64,000 nt of DNA, taken from contig OZ245056.1 of NCBI GenBank assembly GCA_965224705.1, positions 448,001-512,000 of the forward strand, read 5' to 3'. Position numbers and translations under genes: made by a program. The notes below the pieces were generated by a model. The model made no database searches, was not told the DNA's origin, and was given only the letters and a program-made list of their open reading frames with translations. This document shows positions 24,868 through 50,242 of this stretch, piece by piece; the stretch's first letter is position 1; each line of letters begins with the position of its first letter. The DNA comes from Spirochaetaceae bacterium. GTDB taxonomy: Bacteria; Spirochaetota; Spirochaetia; DSM-2461.

Positions 24868-26409
24868 ATGACAAGCAATCAACAACGTGAGGCACTGCAG
24901 CAGCAGATCTGGAAAATTGCCAATGATGTACGGGGTGCGGTAGATGGCTGGGATTTTAAGCAATATGTACTCGGTACCCTGTTCTATCGTTTTATCAGTG
25001 AGAATTTTTCCGGCTACTTTGAAGCCAATGATGAGAGCATTCACTATGCGGAACTGGACGATGGGGTGATCACTCCGGAAATCAAAGATGATGCCGTTAA
25101 AACCAAAGGCTACTTCATCTATCCCAGTGAACTGTTTGCTAATATTGCCAAAGGCGCGAATACCAACGACAGCCTGAATACCGACCTTGCCGCCATCTTT
25201 ACCGCCATCGAAAGCTCTGCCAGCGGTTACCCGTCGGAAGCGGATATAAAGGGACTGTTTGCCGATTTTGATACCACCAGCAACCGCCTCGGCAATACCG
25301 TTATCGACAAGAACATCCGTCTGGCCGCCGTGCTCAAAGGGGTGGCCGGGCTTGATTTCGGTGATTTTCACGGCAGCCAGATCGACCTCTTCGGTGATGC
25401 CTACGAGTTCCTCATTTCAAACTACGCCGCCAATGCCGGTAAATCCGGCGGTGAATTCTTCACTCCCCAGCATGTTTCCAAACTGATCGCCCAACTGGCG
25501 ATGCACAAGCAAACCAGCGTCAACAAAATATACGACCCCGCATGCGGCTCTGGCTCCCTGCTGCTGCAATCCAAGAAACACTTCGACGCCCATGTAATAG
25601 AAGACGGCTTCTTTGGTCAGGAGATCAACCACACAACTTACAACCTGGCGCGGATGAACATGTTTTTACACAACATCAACTACGACAAGTTCAATATCCA
25701 ACTGGGCGACACTCTGATCAAACCCCATTTCGGAAACGATAAACCTTTTGATGCCATCGTTTCCAATCCGCCTTACTCGGTAAAGTGGATCGGCAGCGAC
25801 GATCCAACCCTGATTAACGATGAACGCTTTGCCCCGGCCTCTGTGCTTGCTCCCAAATCCAAGGCCGACTTTGCCTTTGTACTGCATGCGCTGAACTACC
25901 TTTCCAGCAAAGGCCGCGCGGCGATTGTTTGCTTCCCCGGTATCTTTTACCGCGGCGGTGCCGAAAAAAGAATCCGCCAGTATCTGGTGGATAAAAACTA
26001 TGTGGAGACCGTGATCTCTCTGGCACCCAATCTGTTTTACGGAACCAGCATCGCCGTCAACATTCTGGTGCTTTCCAGGCATAAATCCGACACCACAACC
26101 CAGTTTATCGATGCCAGCGAGCTGTTCAGGAAAGAAACCAATAACAATGTGCTGACTATTGAGCATATTGAGCAGATCATGAAGGCGTTTGATAGCAAAG
26201 AGAAGGTGGATCACTTTGCTGAATCCGTAGACAACGAGAAGATCGCTGCCAACGACTATAACCTCTCCGTCTCCAGTTATGTGGAAGCTAAAGACACTCG
26301 GGAAGTGATTGATATTGCCCAGCTCAATGCCGAGCTGAAAACCACCGTGGAAAAGATTGACCGGTTGCGCAGTGATATTGATGCCATTGTTGCGGAGATT
26401 GAAGCATGA
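24868..26409 (+). CDS. hsdM: Type I R-M methyltransferase subunit (type IC-like)
   Basis: [27 protein letters not shown]. Confidence 0.97.
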
Positions 26410-27077
26410 GTGATATGATTATTTACACGACCGATGATGGTGCGACCAAGATTGATCTGCGTCTGGAGGGTGGCACGGTCTGGTTGTCGCAGCTGCAAAT
26501 TGCCGAACTGTTTCAAACCACCAAGCAAAACATCAGCAAGCATATTCAGGCTATTTATGATGACCATGAACTCGACGAGCAGACAACTGTCAACCAACAG
26601 TTGACAGTTCAAAAAGAAGGCAATCGCGAAGTTTCCCGTACCATCAGCGAAGTGATTTATTTGCGAGTGGACAGCGACAAACCCTTTGCCGGACTCAGCA
26701 ACTTTGAAGGCAGCCAGCCCACTCAGGCCGAAGCCATGATTGCCAAAAACTACCTCAGCGAACAGGAGCTGCGGGTGCTCAATAATCTCGTGTCGGCCTA
26801 TTTTGATCTCGCCGAACTCAACGCCATTGAACAGCGCGGGATGTGTATGGCCGATTATGTACGGGAACTGGACACCATTCTTAGCTCAACTAATAGAAAT
26901 CTGCTGGATAACGCAGGCTCCATCTCAAGCAATAAGGCCAAAGAAAAGGCCAAGCTCGAATATAGAAAATACAAAGCTAAAACACTTGATAAAGTTGAAA
27001 AAGACTACCTGAAAACCATTACAGCATTAGAGAAACAGGCCAGGAAAAAGATCCGCAAAAAAGGCGGTGAGGTGTGA
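26406..27077 (+). pseudogene. rhuM: RhuM-family protein with in-frame internal deletion
   Basis: TVWLSQLQIAELF..EGNREVSRTI is joined directly to SEVIYLRVDSDKP..IAKNYL; the conserved central YNLD/GYRV/QFR block is absent. Confidence 0.75.
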
Positions 27078-27748
27078 GTAAGGAACCACAGATGGACACG
27101 GATACACACAGATTGCATCCTTTTATGGAAAAGCTGCTGGATGGGGCTGGGGTGGAGTGGAAGGCGTTAAGAGATGTCTTGCTGAAAGTGGAGAATGTAA
27201 ACTGGTTAAAGGCCAACAGGACATTTAAGTATATTGATTTGTCATCGGTTGACAGAGCATTACATATAGTTACTGAAACAATAGATGTTGATTCAGCTAA
27301 CCATCCTAGCCGAGCTCAACAAATTGTGAAAAAGCGAGATGTTATTTTTGGAACGACGAGGCCGATGTTAAATCGTTTCGCCGTGATTAATGACGAATTA
27401 GATGGCGAAATCGCAAGCACAGGGTTTGCAGTTCTGAGACCAAATAAAAGCATAATCCTCTCCAAGTTTTTATATTTCTCTCTTACTGCTCGCGATTTCA
27501 TGAACTATGTTGATCAAAATCAGAAAGGTGCTGGATATCCGGCTATTTCAGATTCAGTAGTCAAAAAGTATCTAATTCCCATCCCCTGCCCGGAGAACCC
27601 GGAAAAATCGCTGAAAATTCAGGCGGAAATCGTCCGTATTCTGGACGCGTTCACCGAGCTTAACACCGAGCTTACCACCCGCAGAAAGCAGTATGAGTAC
27701 TATCGTGATCTGTTGTTGAGTTTCCCCAAGCCGGAGGAAGCATCATGA
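27074..27748 (+). CDS. hsdS: Half-length type IC specificity subunit (single TRD)
   Basis: FMEKLLDGAGVEWK, one TRD, then IPIP..Q.EIVRILDAFTEL..RRKQYEYYRDLLLSF; 224 aa. Confidence 0.88.
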   Translation: MSKEPQMDTDTHRLHPFMEKLLDGAGVEWKALRDVLLKVENVNWLKANRTFKYIDLSSVDRALHIVTETIDVDSANHPSRAQQIVKKRDVIFGTTRPMLNRFAVINDELDGEIASTGFAVLRPNKSIILSKFLYFSLTARDFMNYVDQNQKGAGYPAISDSVVKKYLIPIPCPENPEKSLKIQAEIVRILDAFTELNTELTTRRKQYEYYRDLLLSFPKPEEAS

Positions 27749-27972
27749 GTTTCTCACGCGAAGGCGCGAAGCCGCGAAGAGATATCAAGGAAATTGCCTG
27801 CATCGTGGTGGATACCGCCTTCCAGCTGCACAAGGATTTAGGTACTGGACTGCTGGAATCTGTATATGAGGGTGCCTCGCTGATCAAAGACGGGCTGAAG
27901 CGCGTGGTCAACCATCACACCAACTTCGCGTCTTCGCGCCTTCGCGTGCACCAAAAAGGCGGGGCACAATGA
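27745..27972 (+). pseudogene. GxxExxY protein, internally deleted in frame
   Basis: LHKDLGTGLLESVYE is fused to the C-terminal GASLIKDGLKRVVN. Confidence 0.8.
27755..27948. repeat. 25-bp inverted repeat pair bracketing a GxxExxY gene (class A)
   Basis: cacgcgaaggcgcgaagccgcgaag 27755-27779 versus cttcgcgtcttcgcgccttcgcgtg 27924-27948; 24/25 complementary. Confidence 0.9.
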
Positions 27973-28019
27973 ATCAGACGCTAACAGACATCGGCTATTG
28001 GCAGGAGGAAGCATCATGA
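27969..28019 (+). pseudogene. 16-codon scar, probably the fused termini of a PrrC-like anticodon nuclease gene
   Basis: MNQTLTDI-GYWQEEAS*, with ATGA overlaps at both ends, lying between hsdS and hsdR. Confidence 0.5.
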
Positions 28020-28087
28020 GTTTCTCACGTGAAGGCGCGAAGCCGCAAAGAAATATTGAGGAAATTGTCCGTATTGTGGTGGATACG
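28016..28087 (+). pseudogene. 5' part of a second GxxExxY gene, interrupted by an insertion
   Basis: Near-copy of 27745-27816 (MSFSREGAKPQRNIEEIVRIVVDT), then similarity stops abruptly. Confidence 0.8.
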
Positions 28088-28482
28088 TTGACTTAACTTG
28101 TGTGACAACTACTTTGGCACAGCGCGAGATATTCATAACCCTGACAGATTCCGAAGATTCTCTGTTTCAGAAGAGCACCCAGGTTATGTGTATTTTTTTC
28201 CTGATTTTTTTATCAGTGAAGAAATCTGACCGCTTTTCGATAATCCTGTACTTCTGCTCAACCTGCTGGAACAGAAGAAATCCGGCATCGGAGCTGTTGC
28301 CCTTGCCGTCATTCTTTGCAATGGTTTTGCGGGATTTTCCGATTTTCAGCCCTTGCAATTCGAACTGATAGGCTTTACACTCTGTAGTAGCAAAGCGGGC
28401 TTCTTTCTGTTTGGTATTTCTTTTCATGTAAATATTTTGACAGGGAAGCCTGCTTTGCATCAGGGTATTGATGAGAAATAGG
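28088..28482 (-). mobile_element. IS1380-family remnant (left end and transposase 5' fragment)
   Basis: TEC..QFELQGL..DGKGNSSDAGFLL..FTD; ends in gatgagaaatagg; about 150 bp similar to 31120-31270. Confidence 0.75.
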
Positions 28483-28484
28483 GG

Positions 28485-28738
28485 TTAAGGGGTGATGATA
28501 AGAAGATGGTTCAGGCGTTTATTGACTCCAAAGAACTGCCGGATCTGGTGGATAACAGTTTTACTCAGACACTGAAAACGATTCTCGCAGGGTTATAAAA
28601 AAGGCTGATCTGTTGACAAAGCTTTCCGCTCTAGGACCAGCAGCACCGGATGACTTTAAGAGAGTTCTTGGTGCCTATGTTGATGAACTGGCAAAGGGGA
28701 AAGACCCAGCCAAAGTCAGACTGGTAATGGAAGGATAG
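28485..28738 (+). pseudogene. Frameshifted 3' remnant of a DUF6079-like (type 3 BREX ATPase) gene
   Basis: [22 protein letters not shown], then shifted frame ..YVDELAKGKDPAKVRLVME*; family recognised from recall. Confidence 0.6.
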
Positions 28739-28743
28739 CAGAC

Positions 28744-29952
28744 ATGAAAAGATATACAGATGAAGAACTGTTACTTTTGCTCAATGACACTGAGTCAGAT
28801 CGTGTTGAACGTAAACAGTCGTTCAAGGGCGACACGCCTAAAAAGGCCAGACAAGCTGTTTGCGCATTTGCCAATGATCTTCCCAACCATAATGAACCAG
28901 GCATTTTATTTATTGGAGCAGTCGATGACGGGACTCCATCGCAGGAACAGATTACAGACCAAATGCTGCTATCTCTGTCAGATATTAAAACAGACGGGAA
29001 TATTTTACCGTTACCTGCAATGTCAGTAGAAAAACGAAATCTGAAAGGGGCAGAGATGGCTGTTGTGACCGTCATGCCGTCTGACATGCCTCCAGTAAAA
29101 TATGGTGGTCGAATATGGATTCGGACTGGCCCTCGCCGGGCAGTCGCAAATGAGCAGGAAGAACGAATTCTTAACGAAAAACGCAGGCACAAAAATCTGC
29201 CATTTGATATCTATCCATTCCCTTCAGCCAAACTCAGGGATCTATCTCAAACGATCTTCGAAAATGAATATTTGCCTACGGCTTTTGCGAGCGATGTGTT
29301 GGAAGCCAATGAACGCTCCTATGAGGAACGTTTAGCATCCTGCAAAATGATTACGCCTCCGGAAGATACTACACCTACGGTATTGGGTTTACTTGCCATA
29401 GGCAAAAGTCCTCAGGACTTTCTACCCGGCGCTTTTAGTCAGTTTTTACGCATTGACGGAACTGAACTCGCCGACCCGGTGATTGATGAAGAAGAGATCC
29501 GAGGTACTGTAGTCGACATCCTTCGGCGCACAGAAGAGAAATTAAAAGCACATAACCGAACCGGTGTGGATATCACATCGGCCGCAACGCATCAGAAAGT
29601 TCAGCCCTATCCTATAGCCGCCATACGACAGATTCTATACAATGCCGTACTGCATCGCTGTTATGAAGGCACCAATGCGCCCATTCGAGTCTATTGGTTT
29701 AACGACCGGATAGAGATTAGCAGCCCGGGTGGTCCTTATGGCAATGTTACCCCAGAAAACTTTGGCGAACCTGGTATTACAGATTATCGAAACCCGAATA
29801 TAGCCGATGTTCTCAAAACGTTTGGTTACATTCAGGCCTTTGGACGGGGTATTGCAACTGCACGCCGTGAAATGAATAAGAATGGAAATCCGAAGCTGGA
29901 GTTTACCGTCAATTCAAGCACTGTTCTTTGCACCCTTAGGGGGAAACAATGA
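28744..29952 (+). CDS. AlbA_2/Schlafen-like domain plus HATPase_c_4 (RecG C-terminal-like) protein
   Basis: ESDRVERK, VCAFAN..G.LFIGAVDDG; AIRQILYNAVLHRCY, IEISSPGG, YRNPNIA, FGRGI. Confidence 0.85.
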   Translation: MKRYTDEELLLLLNDTESDRVERKQSFKGDTPKKARQAVCAFANDLPNHNEPGILFIGAVDDGTPSQEQITDQMLLSLSDIKTDGNILPLPAMSVEKRNLKGAEMAVVTVMPSDMPPVKYGGRIWIRTGPRRAVANEQEERILNEKRRHKNLPFDIYPFPSAKLRDLSQTIFENEYLPTAFASDVLEANERSYEERLASCKMITPPEDTTPTVLGLLAIGKSPQDFLPGAFSQFLRIDGTELADPVIDEEEIRGTVVDILRRTEEKLKAHNRTGVDITSAATHQKVQPYPIAAIRQILYNAVLHRCYEGTNAPIRVYWFNDRIEISSPGGPYGNVTPENFGEPGITDYRNPNIADVLKTFGYIQAFGRGIATARREMNKNGNPKLEFTVNSSTVLCTLRGKQ

Positions 29953-30965
29953 AAACGCCCGTCTTAACTTTCTTCAACAATAAAGGAGGGGTTGGAAAAA
30001 CATCCCTCATTTATCATCTTGCGTGGATGTATTCGACCATCGGGAAAAAAGTTATAGTTGCCGATCTTGATCCTCAGGCAAATCTCACTGCGGCCTTCTT
30101 AAGCGAAGAAAGAATTGAGCAGCTTTGGGACGAGCAGGAGTTTGGCTCCACCATCTACCATTGCGTAAGACCTCTTACGGGTGTTGGTGATATTGTTGAA
30201 CCTGTATTGCAAAAAATAAATACCAACCTGTTTTTTGTCCCCGGCGATGTAAAACTGTCCGGATTCGAAGATGTCCTTTCCAGCGAGTGGCCTAATAGCA
30301 TGAGCGATAACAATCTTTATCGTCCCATGCGAATGCTCTCCTCTTTCTGGCAAGTCATGCAGATGGGCGCGAAGCAGATTAATGCCGATATCATTCTTGT
30401 CGACATTGGTCCCAATCTGGGAGCCATCAACCGTTCGGTATTAATTGCAACCAACTTTGTTGTCATTCCTCTCGGTGCGGATCTGTTTTCCCTGCAGGGA
30501 CTAAAAAACCTGGGCCCAACATTGGGTTCCTGGAAAGACCGGTGGAAAAAAAGATTGGATAACTGGCAAGGCAGTCGGGAATGTCGCAATTATACGGACT
30601 TCGAACTGCCCAAAGGAAAAATGCAGGTCATTGGTTATCTTTGTCAGCAGCATGGGGTTCGCCTCGCTCGCCCTGTTAAAGCCTATGAAAAATGGGTGAA
30701 CCGCATTCCGAAAGTCTATCGAGAAGCAGTTTTGAACCAACATAATCCCGAGTCTTTGAAGCAGGCGGAAGATCCATACTGCCTTGCTACCATCAAGCAC
30801 TATCGGAGTCTTATCCCAATGGGGCAAGAGCATCGCAAACCGATTTTTGAATTAACCGCTGCTGACGGCGCAATCGGCTCCCATGCGAACGCGGTTCAAG
30901 ATGCAAGAGAAGATTTTAAGGCCTTAGCAAAAAAAATTGCTAAAAAGATGGGCGTGGACACCTAA
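29949..30965 (+). CDS. ParA/Soj-like ATPase (long, non-partitioning type)
   Basis: NNKGGVGKT, DLDPQANLT, DIGPNLGAINR. Confidence 0.88.
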   Translation: MKTPVLTFFNNKGGVGKTSLIYHLAWMYSTIGKKVIVADLDPQANLTAAFLSEERIEQLWDEQEFGSTIYHCVRPLTGVGDIVEPVLQKINTNLFFVPGDVKLSGFEDVLSSEWPNSMSDNNLYRPMRMLSSFWQVMQMGAKQINADIILVDIGPNLGAINRSVLIATNFVVIPLGADLFSLQGLKNLGPTLGSWKDRWKKRLDNWQGSRECRNYTDFELPKGKMQVIGYLCQQHGVRLARPVKAYEKWVNRIPKVYREAVLNQHNPESLKQAEDPYCLATIKHYRSLIPMGQEHRKPIFELTAADGAIGSHANAVQDAREDFKALAKKIAKKMGVDT

Positions 30966-30989
30966 GAAAAAAGAGTAATTCTGGCATAC

Positions 30990-31270
30990 TGATCTGTTCA
31001 GGGTGCTCTTCCCTGCCGATGGAGTTTTATCATCCCGTCCGCATATATATTGAAGCAGTGGATCATCGCGCAATCGTTCATGATCATTAAGATCTTCATA
31101 CTTTACAATGATTCTGCGGGATTTTCCGATTTCCAGCCCTTGCAATTCAAGCTGATGGGCTTTACACTCTGTATTATCAAAGCGGGCTTCTTTTCTTTTG
31201 TTATTTCTTTTCATGTAAATATTTTAACATGGGAAGCCTGCTTTGTATCAAGGTATTGGTGAGAAGTAGG
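30990..31270 (-). mobile_element. Second IS1380-family remnant, internally deleted, same orientation as the first
   Basis: TECKAHQLELQGL.. fused to YEDLNDHERLRDDPLL..AGKSTLNR; ends in ggtgagaagtagg. Confidence 0.8.
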
Positions 31271-31581
31271 ATTTAGACCCTGAACTGCTGGAATCTGTAT
31301 ATGGGGCGGTGTTCGCCCAAATGCTGACGAAAAAAGGGTTGGTGATAGAACATCAGAGAGCCGTGCCGATTCACTATCAGGGAATGGTGTTGGATGAAGG
31401 CTTTCGACTCGATTTTCTGGTTGATAAAGAACTGATTGTAGAGCTTAAATCTATGGAAACACTTCACCCTGTCCACCCCAAACAATTCCAGACTTATCTG
31501 CGTTTGATGGATCTTCCGCTGGGACTGTTCCTTAACTTCGGTGCCTTGCCCAAAGTATCAACCACAAGGCTAGCCCTATGA
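31270..31581 (+). pseudogene. 3' part of the interrupted GxxExxY gene
   Basis: DLDPELLESVYG..QRAVPIHY..FRLDFLVDKELIVELKS..HPKQFQTYLRL..LNFG. Confidence 0.8.
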
Positions 31582-31666
31582 ATTTTCGTGTTTTTCGTGC
31601 CTTTCGTGGTAAAAAAATGAACACCGCCCTTTCATCTTCGCACCTCCAAAAACCGGAGAATTTCTA

Positions 31667-32062
31667 ATGAAACCACAGATTAACACCGATAGACACAGAT
31701 TTCTGTATAAAGAAGAAACGCACAAAATTATTGGATGTGCGTTTGAAGTGTTGAATACACTGGGGCATGGCTTGCTAGAAAAACCGTATGAAAATGCGCT
31801 GGTTGTAGAATTTCAGCAACAAGGTATTTCTTATGCTCAACAACCTCGATTCCCTGTGATCTATAAATCAGTGAATGTTGGTGAGTATATCCCTGACCTG
31901 ATTGTGTACGATAAAATCATTGTAGACACCAAAGCAATTGAATTAATCGGCAGCAACGAAAAAGCCCAGATAATCAACTACCTGAAAATCACCGGCCTTA
32001 GAGTTGGACTGCTACTAAACTTTAAACACCCAAAACTGCAATGGGAGAGAATTATATTATGA
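31667..32062 (+). CDS. Intact GxxExxY protein (PD-(D/E)XK nuclease-like)
   Basis: LGHGLLEKPYE, YIPDLIV..IIVDTK, AQIINYLK..GLLLNF. Confidence 0.9.
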   Translation: MKPQINTDRHRFLYKEETHKIIGCAFEVLNTLGHGLLEKPYENALVVEFQQQGISYAQQPRFPVIYKSVNVGEYIPDLIVYDKIIVDTKAIELIGSNEKAQIINYLKITGLRVGLLLNFKHPKLQWERIIL

Positions 32063-32154
32063 AACCACAGATACACACAAATAGACACAGATTATTAAAC
32101 AGGTATTTTAGAAACAACTCTTCTATCCGTGTCCATCTGTGTCCATCCGTGGTT
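32063..32154. repeat. Class B 30-bp periodic inverted repeat pair (empty element)
   Basis: aaccacagatacacacaaatagacacagat and atccgtgtccatctgtgtccatccgtggtt; related left arms at 27084-27113 and 31671-31700. Confidence 0.85.
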
Positions 32155-36097: not shown

Positions 36098-36108
36098 ACG
36101 TTCCCTAG

Positions 36109-36269
36109 GAGTCTGTCGGACTTTAAGGCTTCGAGGCGATTTTTGATGATTTTTTCCTGATGCAAGGCGACAAAAACGGAGCGTAGCTGGGCTACGTGAG
36201 TATTTTGGCAACGCAGCAGCAGGGAAAAAGGGCAAAAATCGAGCCGTGAGGCGTAAGTCCGACAGACTC
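36109..36269. mobile_element. 161-bp MITE with CTAG target duplication
   Basis: TIRs gagtctgtcggactt / aagtccgacagactc; CTAG on both sides. Confidence 0.9.
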
Positions 36270-36367
36270 CTAGCATCCAGAATAGTATTTCTCCTCTCGT
36301 TCAACAACTGCTGTCTCCACACTGGCGGAGAATTCATAGAGCGTAGGAAGGGCGTTCAGTGCCCTGG

Positions 36368-49589: not shown

Positions 49590-49900
49590 GAGAGTTTGCC
49601 GGACTCTAAGAATTCGAAGCGATTTTTATGATTTTTCCTGATGCAAGGCGACCTGTCCGCCGACAGGCGGGCAAAAACTTAAGCGCGGCTGGGCTGCGGG
49701 AATACTATGAGTCTGTCGGACTTTAAGACTTCGAGGCGATTTTTGATGATTTTTTTCCGATACAAGGCGGCAAAAGCGGAGCGTAGCTGGGCTCCGTGAG
49801 CATTTTGACAACGCGGTAGCGGGAAAAAAGGGCAAAAATCGAGCCGTGAGGCGTAAGTCCGACAGACTCCTATGGCAACGCAGCAGGAAACAGGGTGATT
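49590..49900. mobile_element. Nested MITEs: intact 161-bp copy (49709-49869) inside an older diverged copy
   Basis: Inner TIRs as at 36109, flanked by CTAT at 49705 and 49870; outer halves rejoin to gctgcgggaatactatggcaacgcagcag. Confidence 0.85.
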
Positions 49901-50028: not shown

Positions 50029-50242
50029 CAGGGCAATCGCATCTAATTCTATCCCAAAAAAATGAAAAACACTAATTTTTGGGGGAACGAATGGAGTTTC
50101 CTTCAATAGGAGGAATTTGTCAACTTTTTGTTATCGTTGTGATGTGAATAATTACCTTGAACACTCTGCGCTCTCTGCGTCCTCTGCGGTTAAGAATCAT
50201 GAATAAGGCTTTCATAAGTGGATTTTAGATGCGATTGCCCTG
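50029..50242. mobile_element. 214-bp ISAs1-type MITE
   Basis: Perfect 18-bp TIR cagggcaatcgcatctaa / ttagatgcgattgccctg; 10-bp direct repeat gaacttctaa at 50019 and 50243. Confidence 0.88.

Follow-up and report, generated by a model that had tools for sequence, protein, structure and literature searches.

How do several copies of one small gene, accompanied by thrice-repeated inverted sequences, come to lie between the hsdS and hsdR genes of a single type I restriction-modification (R-M) operon? The question is raised by a 64,000-nucleotide (nt) stretch of a Spirochaetaceae bacterium (GenBank assembly GCA_965224705.1, contig OZ245056.1, positions 448,001 to 512,000), hereafter the window, whose coordinates are used throughout. 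The genes belong to the GxxExxY family (PF13366), which the passages of PMC3424549 that deal with it describe as very common, listed as unknown, and subject to many inter-phylum transfers. A preliminary description of the window proposed that the genes and the repeats that bound them, here called arms, form mobile cassettes. That proposal is supported by the enrichment of arms at GxxExxY genes, the co-variation of arm class with protein clade, the existence of filled and empty sites, and the unrelated contexts in which the unit is found.

Structure of the cassette and its arms

All arm classes are variants of one motif, AAC-(CRCRRAN plus 1-3 nt)x3, together with its inverse, so that the four separate classes of the preliminary description reduce to a single CRCRRAN x3 family; classes are named here by the ending of the unit. 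The arm positions given there were all recovered, as were CTCTGCG x3 at 50164 (a GAG-class right arm, 50164-50191) and the left-arm coding of the peptides REGAKPRR and PQINTDRHR. The two AAG-class arms around the first cassette are 96% complementary over 25 nt, and a third arm of this class follows (Table 1). T-class left arms begin at 27084, 31671 and 32063. That at 27084, earlier assigned to a GxxExxY gene, instead heads hsdS, whose orthologs in G015 and L306 start at an MxKLL segment that follows this arm in the window. The segment 32063-32154, earlier read as an empty arm pair, is a genuine hairpin. It does not represent an empty site, since its right arm is shared with the intact gene and the inner left-arm repeat also follows the gene in L010, L019 and L026. 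Derivation of the loop of 32059-32154 from the 3′-end of the gene was considered and rejected (best score 12, against 10-14 for shuffles).

Four GxxExxY copies lie between hsdS and hsdR, in agreement with the minimum of three counted earlier, but only that at 31667-32062 is intact and the other three are remnants; the profile cut-offs are 35 bits for TIGR04256 and 22 bits for PF13366. The copy at 27745-27972 keeps both arms, the first 42 codons of the gene and its last codons. A contig of run X3 joins the middle missing from this copy (31526) to its 3′-end (27878), which indicates that an undeleted AAG-class gene is present in the population. The copy at 31268-31581 is probably a chimera, since its start matches the AAG-class gene (repeat D6) and its end is followed by an A-class arm. 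The genome as a whole carries three full-length GxxExxY genes, each with its own arm class: the T-class gene of the window, an A-class gene (L001) before a type III mod gene, and a GAG-class gene (L002) amid about 29 arms.

Genome-wide, 227 arms (at most one mismatch) were found in 56 clusters, against 5 in the reversed genome. AAC precedes 168 of the 227, only 12 lie inside long open reading frames (ORFs), and 60 facing pairs are at most 250 nt apart. The left arm provides the start codon of the GxxExxY gene, and the next gene starts a median of 18 nt past the right arm (a start was found for 101 of 138), so that insertion at gene junctions leaves operons readable. Exact arm copies in three genomes of the window's genus number 196, 307 and 857; in the latter two, very long arm arrays of 90-200 nt spacing were observed at G012:C1:1496737-1500751 and G001:C1:268868-274421, respectively.

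Arm and gene travel together

GxxExxY genes were gathered by family search and by homology, and counts were made on 121 full-length genes picked by family, a set in which the genes of this genome are included, as are those of five genomes to which close homologs had initially led. Incomplete genes, genes lying close to a contig end and one domain within a 2397-amino acid ORF (L224) were left out before counting. In the three phyla sampled, 20 of 31, 11 of 31 and 11 of 26 genomes carried the family. A left arm accompanied 53 of the 121 genes, a right arm 68, both arms 44 and either arm 77, and an inverted match of score at least 14 spanned 70. Both arms occurred at 1 of 91 distal control ORFs, 1 of 400 own-genome ORFs and none of 605 shuffles, a strong enrichment of arms at GxxExxY genes. 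The left unit equalled the right unit in 28 of the 44 genes with both arms (permuted mean 3.0, maximum 9).

Arm class also segregates with protein clade, as had been proposed. On a quick tree of 148 proteins, 97 of them labelled, which rests on few columns and has many open forks and non-independent rows, class changed 14 times against a shuffled mean of 46 (minimum 40); with family-picked genes only, the figures were 14 and 38 (minimum 30). G-ending units all fall in one half of the tree, with the exception of L176, and T- and A-ending units in the other, with the exception of L136. Arm classes span phyla, and the A clade (support 99) unites genes of the window's genus with genes from three more of the phyla sampled. 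Co-variation of this kind is evidence of joint travel of arm and gene, rather than of recognition of one by the other.

Filled and empty sites

The boundaries of the cassette can be read from its relatives. When 31 close relatives, drawn from several phyla, are compared with the window, DNA homology starts at 31665-31733 and never further left; it stops at or just past the GxxExxY gene in 28, the other three also sharing hsdR. No neighbouring gene is shared at gene length in 28 of the 31. The neighbours, identified from peptide ends, include hsdS/hsdR, hsdM/fic or rhuM, DUF4391/mod, lolA/yajQ and an SbcC-like gene. The suggested accumulation is not specific to defence operons: the cassette is also found at lolA/yajQ and, as read from start peptides, at tRNA-synthetase genes of Verrucomicrobia.

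None of 80 orthologous hsdR loci contains a GxxExxY gene. In 7 of the 70 that could be measured hsdS abuts hsdR, and the other 63 hold different DNA, arm-less in most; the L306 ortholog has gene-less arms at both the start and the end of hsdS. In the window the hsdS stop codon overlaps the ATG of the first cassette, which occupies the place of the hsdR ATG in empty operons. Between lolA and yajQ, a GxxExxY gene was found in one genome and none precedes yajQ in 16 genus-mates (nearest YajQ 95% identical). At the filled site, known from one draft contig, a conserved hairpin-promoter segment is gone, no duplication is seen, and short unrelated flanks are present. Target duplications of at least 4 nt were absent from 72 of 107 cassettes and from 73 of 107 mismatched controls, i.e., there was no excess. 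The missing duplication and the loss of native DNA at lolA/yajQ would suit break-and-repair insertion rather than classical transposition. The native lolA/yajQ hairpin (L325-L341) that was lost at the filled site has cassette-like AACC...GGTT ends, which may be a hint at target choice, or chance.

Gene-less hairpins, transposable elements and arrays

Many arms are not associated with a gene. The loops of all 39 GAG-class hairpins of this genome, which are related copies, have their best alignment with the final 26-37 nt of the gene of that class, and 36 of them beat all 20 shuffles. Judged by these alignments, the gene-less hairpins are deletion derivatives of the cassette, and the copy at 27745-27972 represents an intermediate stage of such a deletion. 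Of 41 related genomes, nine have at least six dispersed arms; the gene was found in 8 of these nine and in 5 of the other 32 (Fisher p 1e-4, which kinship overstates); the threshold of six was chosen after seeing the data, and the seven matches of G023, all in one tandem run, were classed as few arms. The dominant arm class fits the resident gene in this genome (G000), in G012 and in G038, and loosely in G031.

The arm at 50164 has a different history. It lies in a member of a family of ISAs1-type miniature inverted-repeat transposable elements (MITEs), which in G000 comprises 22 pairs of terminal inverted repeats (TIRs), 9 with an exact 10-bp target duplication. These MITEs, which have captured GAG-class GxxExxY arms, measure 176-563 bp, with one of 2074 bp owing to an IS1380-like insert. 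In G001 this TIR also encloses a 1263-bp element with an ISAs1 transposase (NF033564, 445 bits), and a search of G000 for an ISAs1 transposase found none. Part of the arm dispersal is thus hitchhiking.

Arms are also associated with tandem duplication. In G012, the mod N-terminus and its arm are duplicated around the cassette, giving a mod-cassette-mod tandem with its junctions at the arm, which suggests that arms behave as recombination points. The in-frame arm in mod lies at the same place in G012 as in this genome, and type III mod genes with in-frame arms at the same N-terminal place were observed at L001:5388-5520 (TAKDANERE) and in L123 (TTKDTKGTK). Tandem arrays of Rpn and of AAA-ATPase plus PDDEXK_9 genes, whose units are each set apart by arms of several classes, were observed at L316-L320 (G000:C1:220000-236000, 995000-1008000, 1170000-1188000 and 1942000-1953000).

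How the cassette may move

The structure model of the 31667-32062 protein has a predicted local distance difference test score (pLDDT) of 97.5. Its nearest fold is Cas4 SSO0001 (Z 8.2, root-mean-square deviation 3.2, 98 aligned residues), followed by restriction-endonuclease-like proteins, Hjc (Z 6.8) and lambda Exo; these scores are middling, for a common fold. Of 124 GxxExxY proteins, 119-124 retain the E of GxxE, a D, the E/D-x-K motif, QxxxY and a terminal R, the catalytic E, D and (D/E)xK being retained in 122-123; QxxxY is a RecB/Cas4 motif. The modelled fold and the catalytic residues, which are under selection, place GxxExxY in the PD-(D/E)XK superfamily, with nuclease activity predicted. 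The unit is likely a TIR-bounded selfish mobile element with a minimal PD-(D/E)XK nuclease, and we give a probability of about 0.5 to the reading in which the nuclease binds its own arms and cuts there, after which repair moves, copies or deletes the segments that the arms bound.

In this reading, the R-M operon has taken in several lineages of one small element with inverted-repeat ends; the complete element carries a gene for a single PD-(D/E)XK nuclease of 120-130 amino acids between AAC-(CRCRRAN)x3 and an inverse arm. The nuclease would bind the triplet arms on duplex DNA and nick or cut near their AAC/GTT ends, and host repair would then insert, delete or duplicate arm-bounded segments. 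The built-in start codon and the short right flank would make gene junctions tolerated targets, and arms acting as direct repeats could drive tandem arrays and duplications. Arms that have been made also spread without the nuclease, in ISAs1-type MITEs and by tandem amplification. A more far-reaching version is tentative, and we consider it possible with the odds somewhat against it: that these are a new class of mobile element found in many phyla, in which a Cas4/RecB-like nuclease reads a thrice-repeated heptamer, clades and arms form orthogonal pairs (T-, A-, GAG- and AAG-ending), and hundreds of gene-less hairpins, seeded by this enzyme too, serve as breakpoints at which defence genes (hsdS, mod, Rpn arrays) are shuffled and amplified.

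Several observations weigh against movement by the nuclease. Physical linkage alone suffices to explain the co-variation of arm and clade, and 44 of the 121 family-picked genes have no CRCRRA arm. Filled and empty sites do exist, as the preliminary description anticipated, but they come from different species rather than being alleles of one. The contigs of four runs gave no well-supported precise excision joint: a joint from 31618 to 32135 (X3 and X10 contigs) would skip the intact gene but has a side of only 27 nt, unknown letters between its halves and a multicopy left half, and a joint of 27832 and 32040, in one X3 contig, lies on opposite strands. G003 (77% complete) has 14 arms and no GxxExxY gene found, G001 has 712 G-class arms yet its only full-length gene found is T-class, and G009 has a G-class gene but 4 G-class arms against 12 T-class and 7 A-class ones. 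Many arms lie between the units of tandem arrays of Rpn or AAA+PDDEXK_9 paralogs, arrays for which no nuclease is needed. Finally, 36 of the 227 genomic arms, including that at 50164, lie inside ISAs1-type MITEs; for these the term transposase-free, used earlier for the whole system, does not apply.

Several of the arm-less genes have other repeats, namely CAGGAT-like units or an upstream GTCAAGG hairpin. The GTCAAGG...CCTTGAC hairpin was observed in several members of a clade without periodic arms (L088, L091, L095, L102, L103 and L111) and is possibly a second repeat family.

Some of the same observations could be explained if GxxExxY were an accessory nuclease useful to the host in defence or repair, with the arms serving its expression (as a portable start codon, an autoregulatory operator and a terminator-like stem) and with passive spread by host recombination, transfer of R-M islands, and hitchhiking on insertion sequences (IS) and MITEs. 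Purifying selection on the gene is strong, with 39-53 silent and 10-21 replacement codon changes between 31667-32062 and 11 relatives, and its siting in R-M operons is frequent. The arm-less passenger DNA at the hsdS-hsdR junction in 63 of the 70 measurable orthologs, the arms carried by MITEs and the mismatched arm classes of G001 and G009 fit this explanation as well, and the passages of PMC10400941 that treat the related PD-(D/E)XK Rpn proteins describe them as anti-phage toxins. We nevertheless consider it unlikely, as it accounts poorly for inverted arms with matched units on both sides of the gene, for insertions at housekeeping junctions, for homology between close relatives that ends at the arms though the neighbours differ, and for hundreds of gene-less derivatives that retain the 3′ tail of the gene.

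The arms could instead act in the transcript, a possibility raised in the preliminary description, with the gene looped out on a long stem and the insert excised or processed as RNA like the intervening sequences of 23S rRNA. The folded transcript does pair the 31671 arm with the 32125 arm and loops the gene out (z -2.5), and the cassettes have the same orientation as the host operon, the next ATG being nearby. In 107 non-independent genes, however, mismatches at unit positions of the arms comprised 62 G-U and 66 A-C, and those in linkers 48 and 75, respectively; without a G-U bias, the arms show no tuning of their pairing to the coding-strand RNA. T-class units recur with a period of 10 nt, about one helical turn (10/10 in 69 of 107 left arms). 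The lack of wobble bias, this period and the close next gene would suit inverted protein-binding sites on duplex or cruciform DNA. Inserts lie between genes, where their removal is unneeded, and lone and same-direction arms are common. A search of Rfam returned no family, only two weak microRNA matches (E 0.31 and 0.68), and the contigs of RNA run X10 (share 0.08) were short and scattered; with no clean joint in the contigs of the four runs either, excision as RNA is disfavoured and appears improbable.

Least probable is an integron-type system whose attC-like hairpins are recombined by a tyrosine recombinase elsewhere in the genome, with GxxExxY merely a common cassette: the AAC...GTT termini (168 of 227 arms) do resemble attC cores, and hairpins punctuate the tandem arrays of Rpn and AAA+PDDEXK_9 genes, but the genome has no integron integrase above cut-off (best 90 of 265 bits), the arrays are near-identical paralogs instead of diverse cassettes, and the gene sits between the arms, with loops derived from it.

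The restriction operon and its passengers

In the operon of the window, hsdM is followed by a RhuM-family gene and then by a half-size hsdS, which 4.4 kb of passenger DNA separates from hsdR (Table 1). Its hsdR type is common, as found by a plasmid search. Contigs of runs X3 and X6 contain 345 extra letters at 26638-26645 that are missing from the RhuM-family gene of the window. The hsdS gene encodes one recognition domain while hsdM and hsdR are intact; half-size HsdS subunits can pair into homodimers that act on symmetric sites. In run X6, one contig matches the window up to 27165 and then diverges, which suggests a different hsdS recognition domain in the strain of that run. Both IS1380-like remnants sit beside broken GxxExxY copies. 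The best-matched arm pair (18/18 nt), 27084-32154, encloses hsdS and all the cargo, so that the whole 5-kb variable part could be one composite unit. Elsewhere in the window, a 165-bp repeat at 36104-36273 and 49709-49872 has more than 200 genome matches and very high depth in all four runs, and is a separate MITE-like family.

Table 1. Arms, GxxExxY copies and neighbouring features of the window.
Feature	Position	Strand	Evidence and remarks
hsdM, type I R-M methyltransferase, 513 amino acids	24868..26409	+	TIGR00497 647 bits
RhuM-family passenger gene, shorter than in other strains	26406..27077	+	PF13310
Half-size hsdS, one recognition domain	27074..27748	+	PF01420, single stretch; G015 ortholog 411 amino acids
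T-class left arm at hsdS start	27084..27114	+	Holds ATG in frame with hsdS; 18/18 nt complementary to 32124-32141
Internally deleted AAG-class GxxExxY cassette	27745..27972	+	Left arm 27755-27779, right arm 27924-27948; TIGR04256 22 bits, below cut-off
Second AAG-class left arm (28026-28050) and N-terminal gene stub	28017..28096	+	86-nt direct repeat D2; translation
IS1380-like transposase remnant, multicopy in genome, high depth in runs	28126..28490	-	PF13701 E 2e-5; genome matches
Passenger, Schlafen/AlbA_2 and RecG-C protein	28744..29952	+	PF04326, PF13749
Passenger, ParA-like AAA ATPase	29949..30965	+	PF13614
Second IS1380-like remnant, adjoins truncated GxxExxY copy	30992..31270	-	PF13701 E 1.5e-7; genome matches
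5′-truncated GxxExxY copy	31268..31581	+	TIGR04256 85 bits (31309-31581); repeat D6
A-class right arm (TTTCGTG x3)	31584..31612	+	Multicopy family, 16 further blastn-short genome matches
Intact T-class GxxExxY (PD-(D/E)XK) predicted nuclease gene, 131 amino acids	31667..32062	+	TIGR04256 142 bits, PF13366 134 bits; left arm 31671-31701 encodes N-terminus
Inner repeat of T-class left arm, overlaps GxxExxY stop codon	32059..32093	+	D3; forms hairpin with right arm (z -2.1 for DNA fold)
T-class right arm with terminal GTGGTT; hsdR start 17 nt downstream	32125..32154	+	Pairs with 31671 arm in folded transcript
hsdR, 1032 amino acids	32172..35270	+	TIGR00348 677 bits
214-bp ISAs1-type MITE with GAG-class right arm	50029..50242	.	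16-bp TIRs, 10-bp target duplication

Relation to known systems

By analogy, the cassette would work most like the repetitive extragenic palindrome (REP) doublets and their associated tyrosine transposases (REPIN/RAYT). A REP unit is a short palindrome with a GTAG/CGTC end. As far as the system is set out in the relevant passages of Bertels and Rainey (2011; PMC3116915), both have gene-less intergenic hairpin doublets and a single linked enzyme gene, tandem clusters, and repeat groups matched to enzyme groups. They differ in that the cassette enzyme is of the PD-(D/E)XK type and that of REPIN/RAYT an HUH (Y1) tyrosine transposase; a PF01797 search of the 95%-complete genome gave 0 matches. The arms are periodic triplets starting with AAC rather than self-palindromic REPs, and the lone 50164 arm does not fold (z 0.27). 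Moreover, the gene lies here within one arm pair, hairpins arise from the cassette by deletion, and the cassette crosses phyla.

Other named families share fewer features. IS elements and their MITE derivatives have inverted ends around one enzyme gene and give rise to internal-deletion derivatives. The cassette likewise has inverted ends, one enzyme gene, deletion derivatives and unrelated insertion sites, but it is without a DDE, HUH, serine or tyrosine enzyme, shows no excess of target duplications, and has lost native DNA at the filled lolA/yajQ site; only the element with the 50164 arm fits an ISAs1-type MITE, with its ISAs1 TIR and 10-bp duplication. ORF-bearing 23S rRNA intervening sequences hold a small ORF (TIGR02436, four helix bundle) in the loop of a long stem. 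The cassette resembles them in having a small ORF within such a loop and differs in lying between protein genes, encoding another protein, and having no RNA-pairing signature. Rpn/YhgA-like proteins are PD-(D/E)XK nucleases reported to promote RecA-independent recombination, and the same arms lie between the units of the Rpn arrays of this genome; the Rpn/YhgA-like proteins belong to PF12784/TIGR01784 instead of PF13366 and are twice the length of GxxExxY, and no flanking periodic arms are mentioned in the pertinent passages of PMC5350276 and PMC10400941. Each of these families failed a defining feature, which places the cassette outside them.

The arms themselves were catalogued before as intergenic multicopy repeats. 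Geobacter bemidjiensis has an octanucleotide repeat [TCTTTGCG]3 and a nonanucleotide repeat [WCCTCTGTG]n, whose function was left open (Aklujkar et al., 2010; PMC2996986), and the consensus units given in the relevant passages fit the right-arm unit YTYYGYG. The main-text passages and 12 supplement files of that paper (not files 13-15) contain no link to GxxExxY, and no description of the pairing of GxxExxY with periodic arms was found in the literature searched, which covers few of the subscription journals.

Implications

A defined cognate DNA site makes the function of PF13366 directly testable: a single protein of 131 amino acids and four short substrates are all that is needed. Movement of the unit by the nuclease, if it occurs, would be a mobile-element chemistry distinct from those of the DDE, HUH, serine and tyrosine enzymes, and it would explain a large, mostly unannotated class of intergenic repeats as well as the spurious peptides at the N-termini of proteins such as those of hsdS and mod. 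Should the orthogonal enzyme-site reading be true, it would provide both a function for PF13366 and a set of 130-residue site-specific nucleases.

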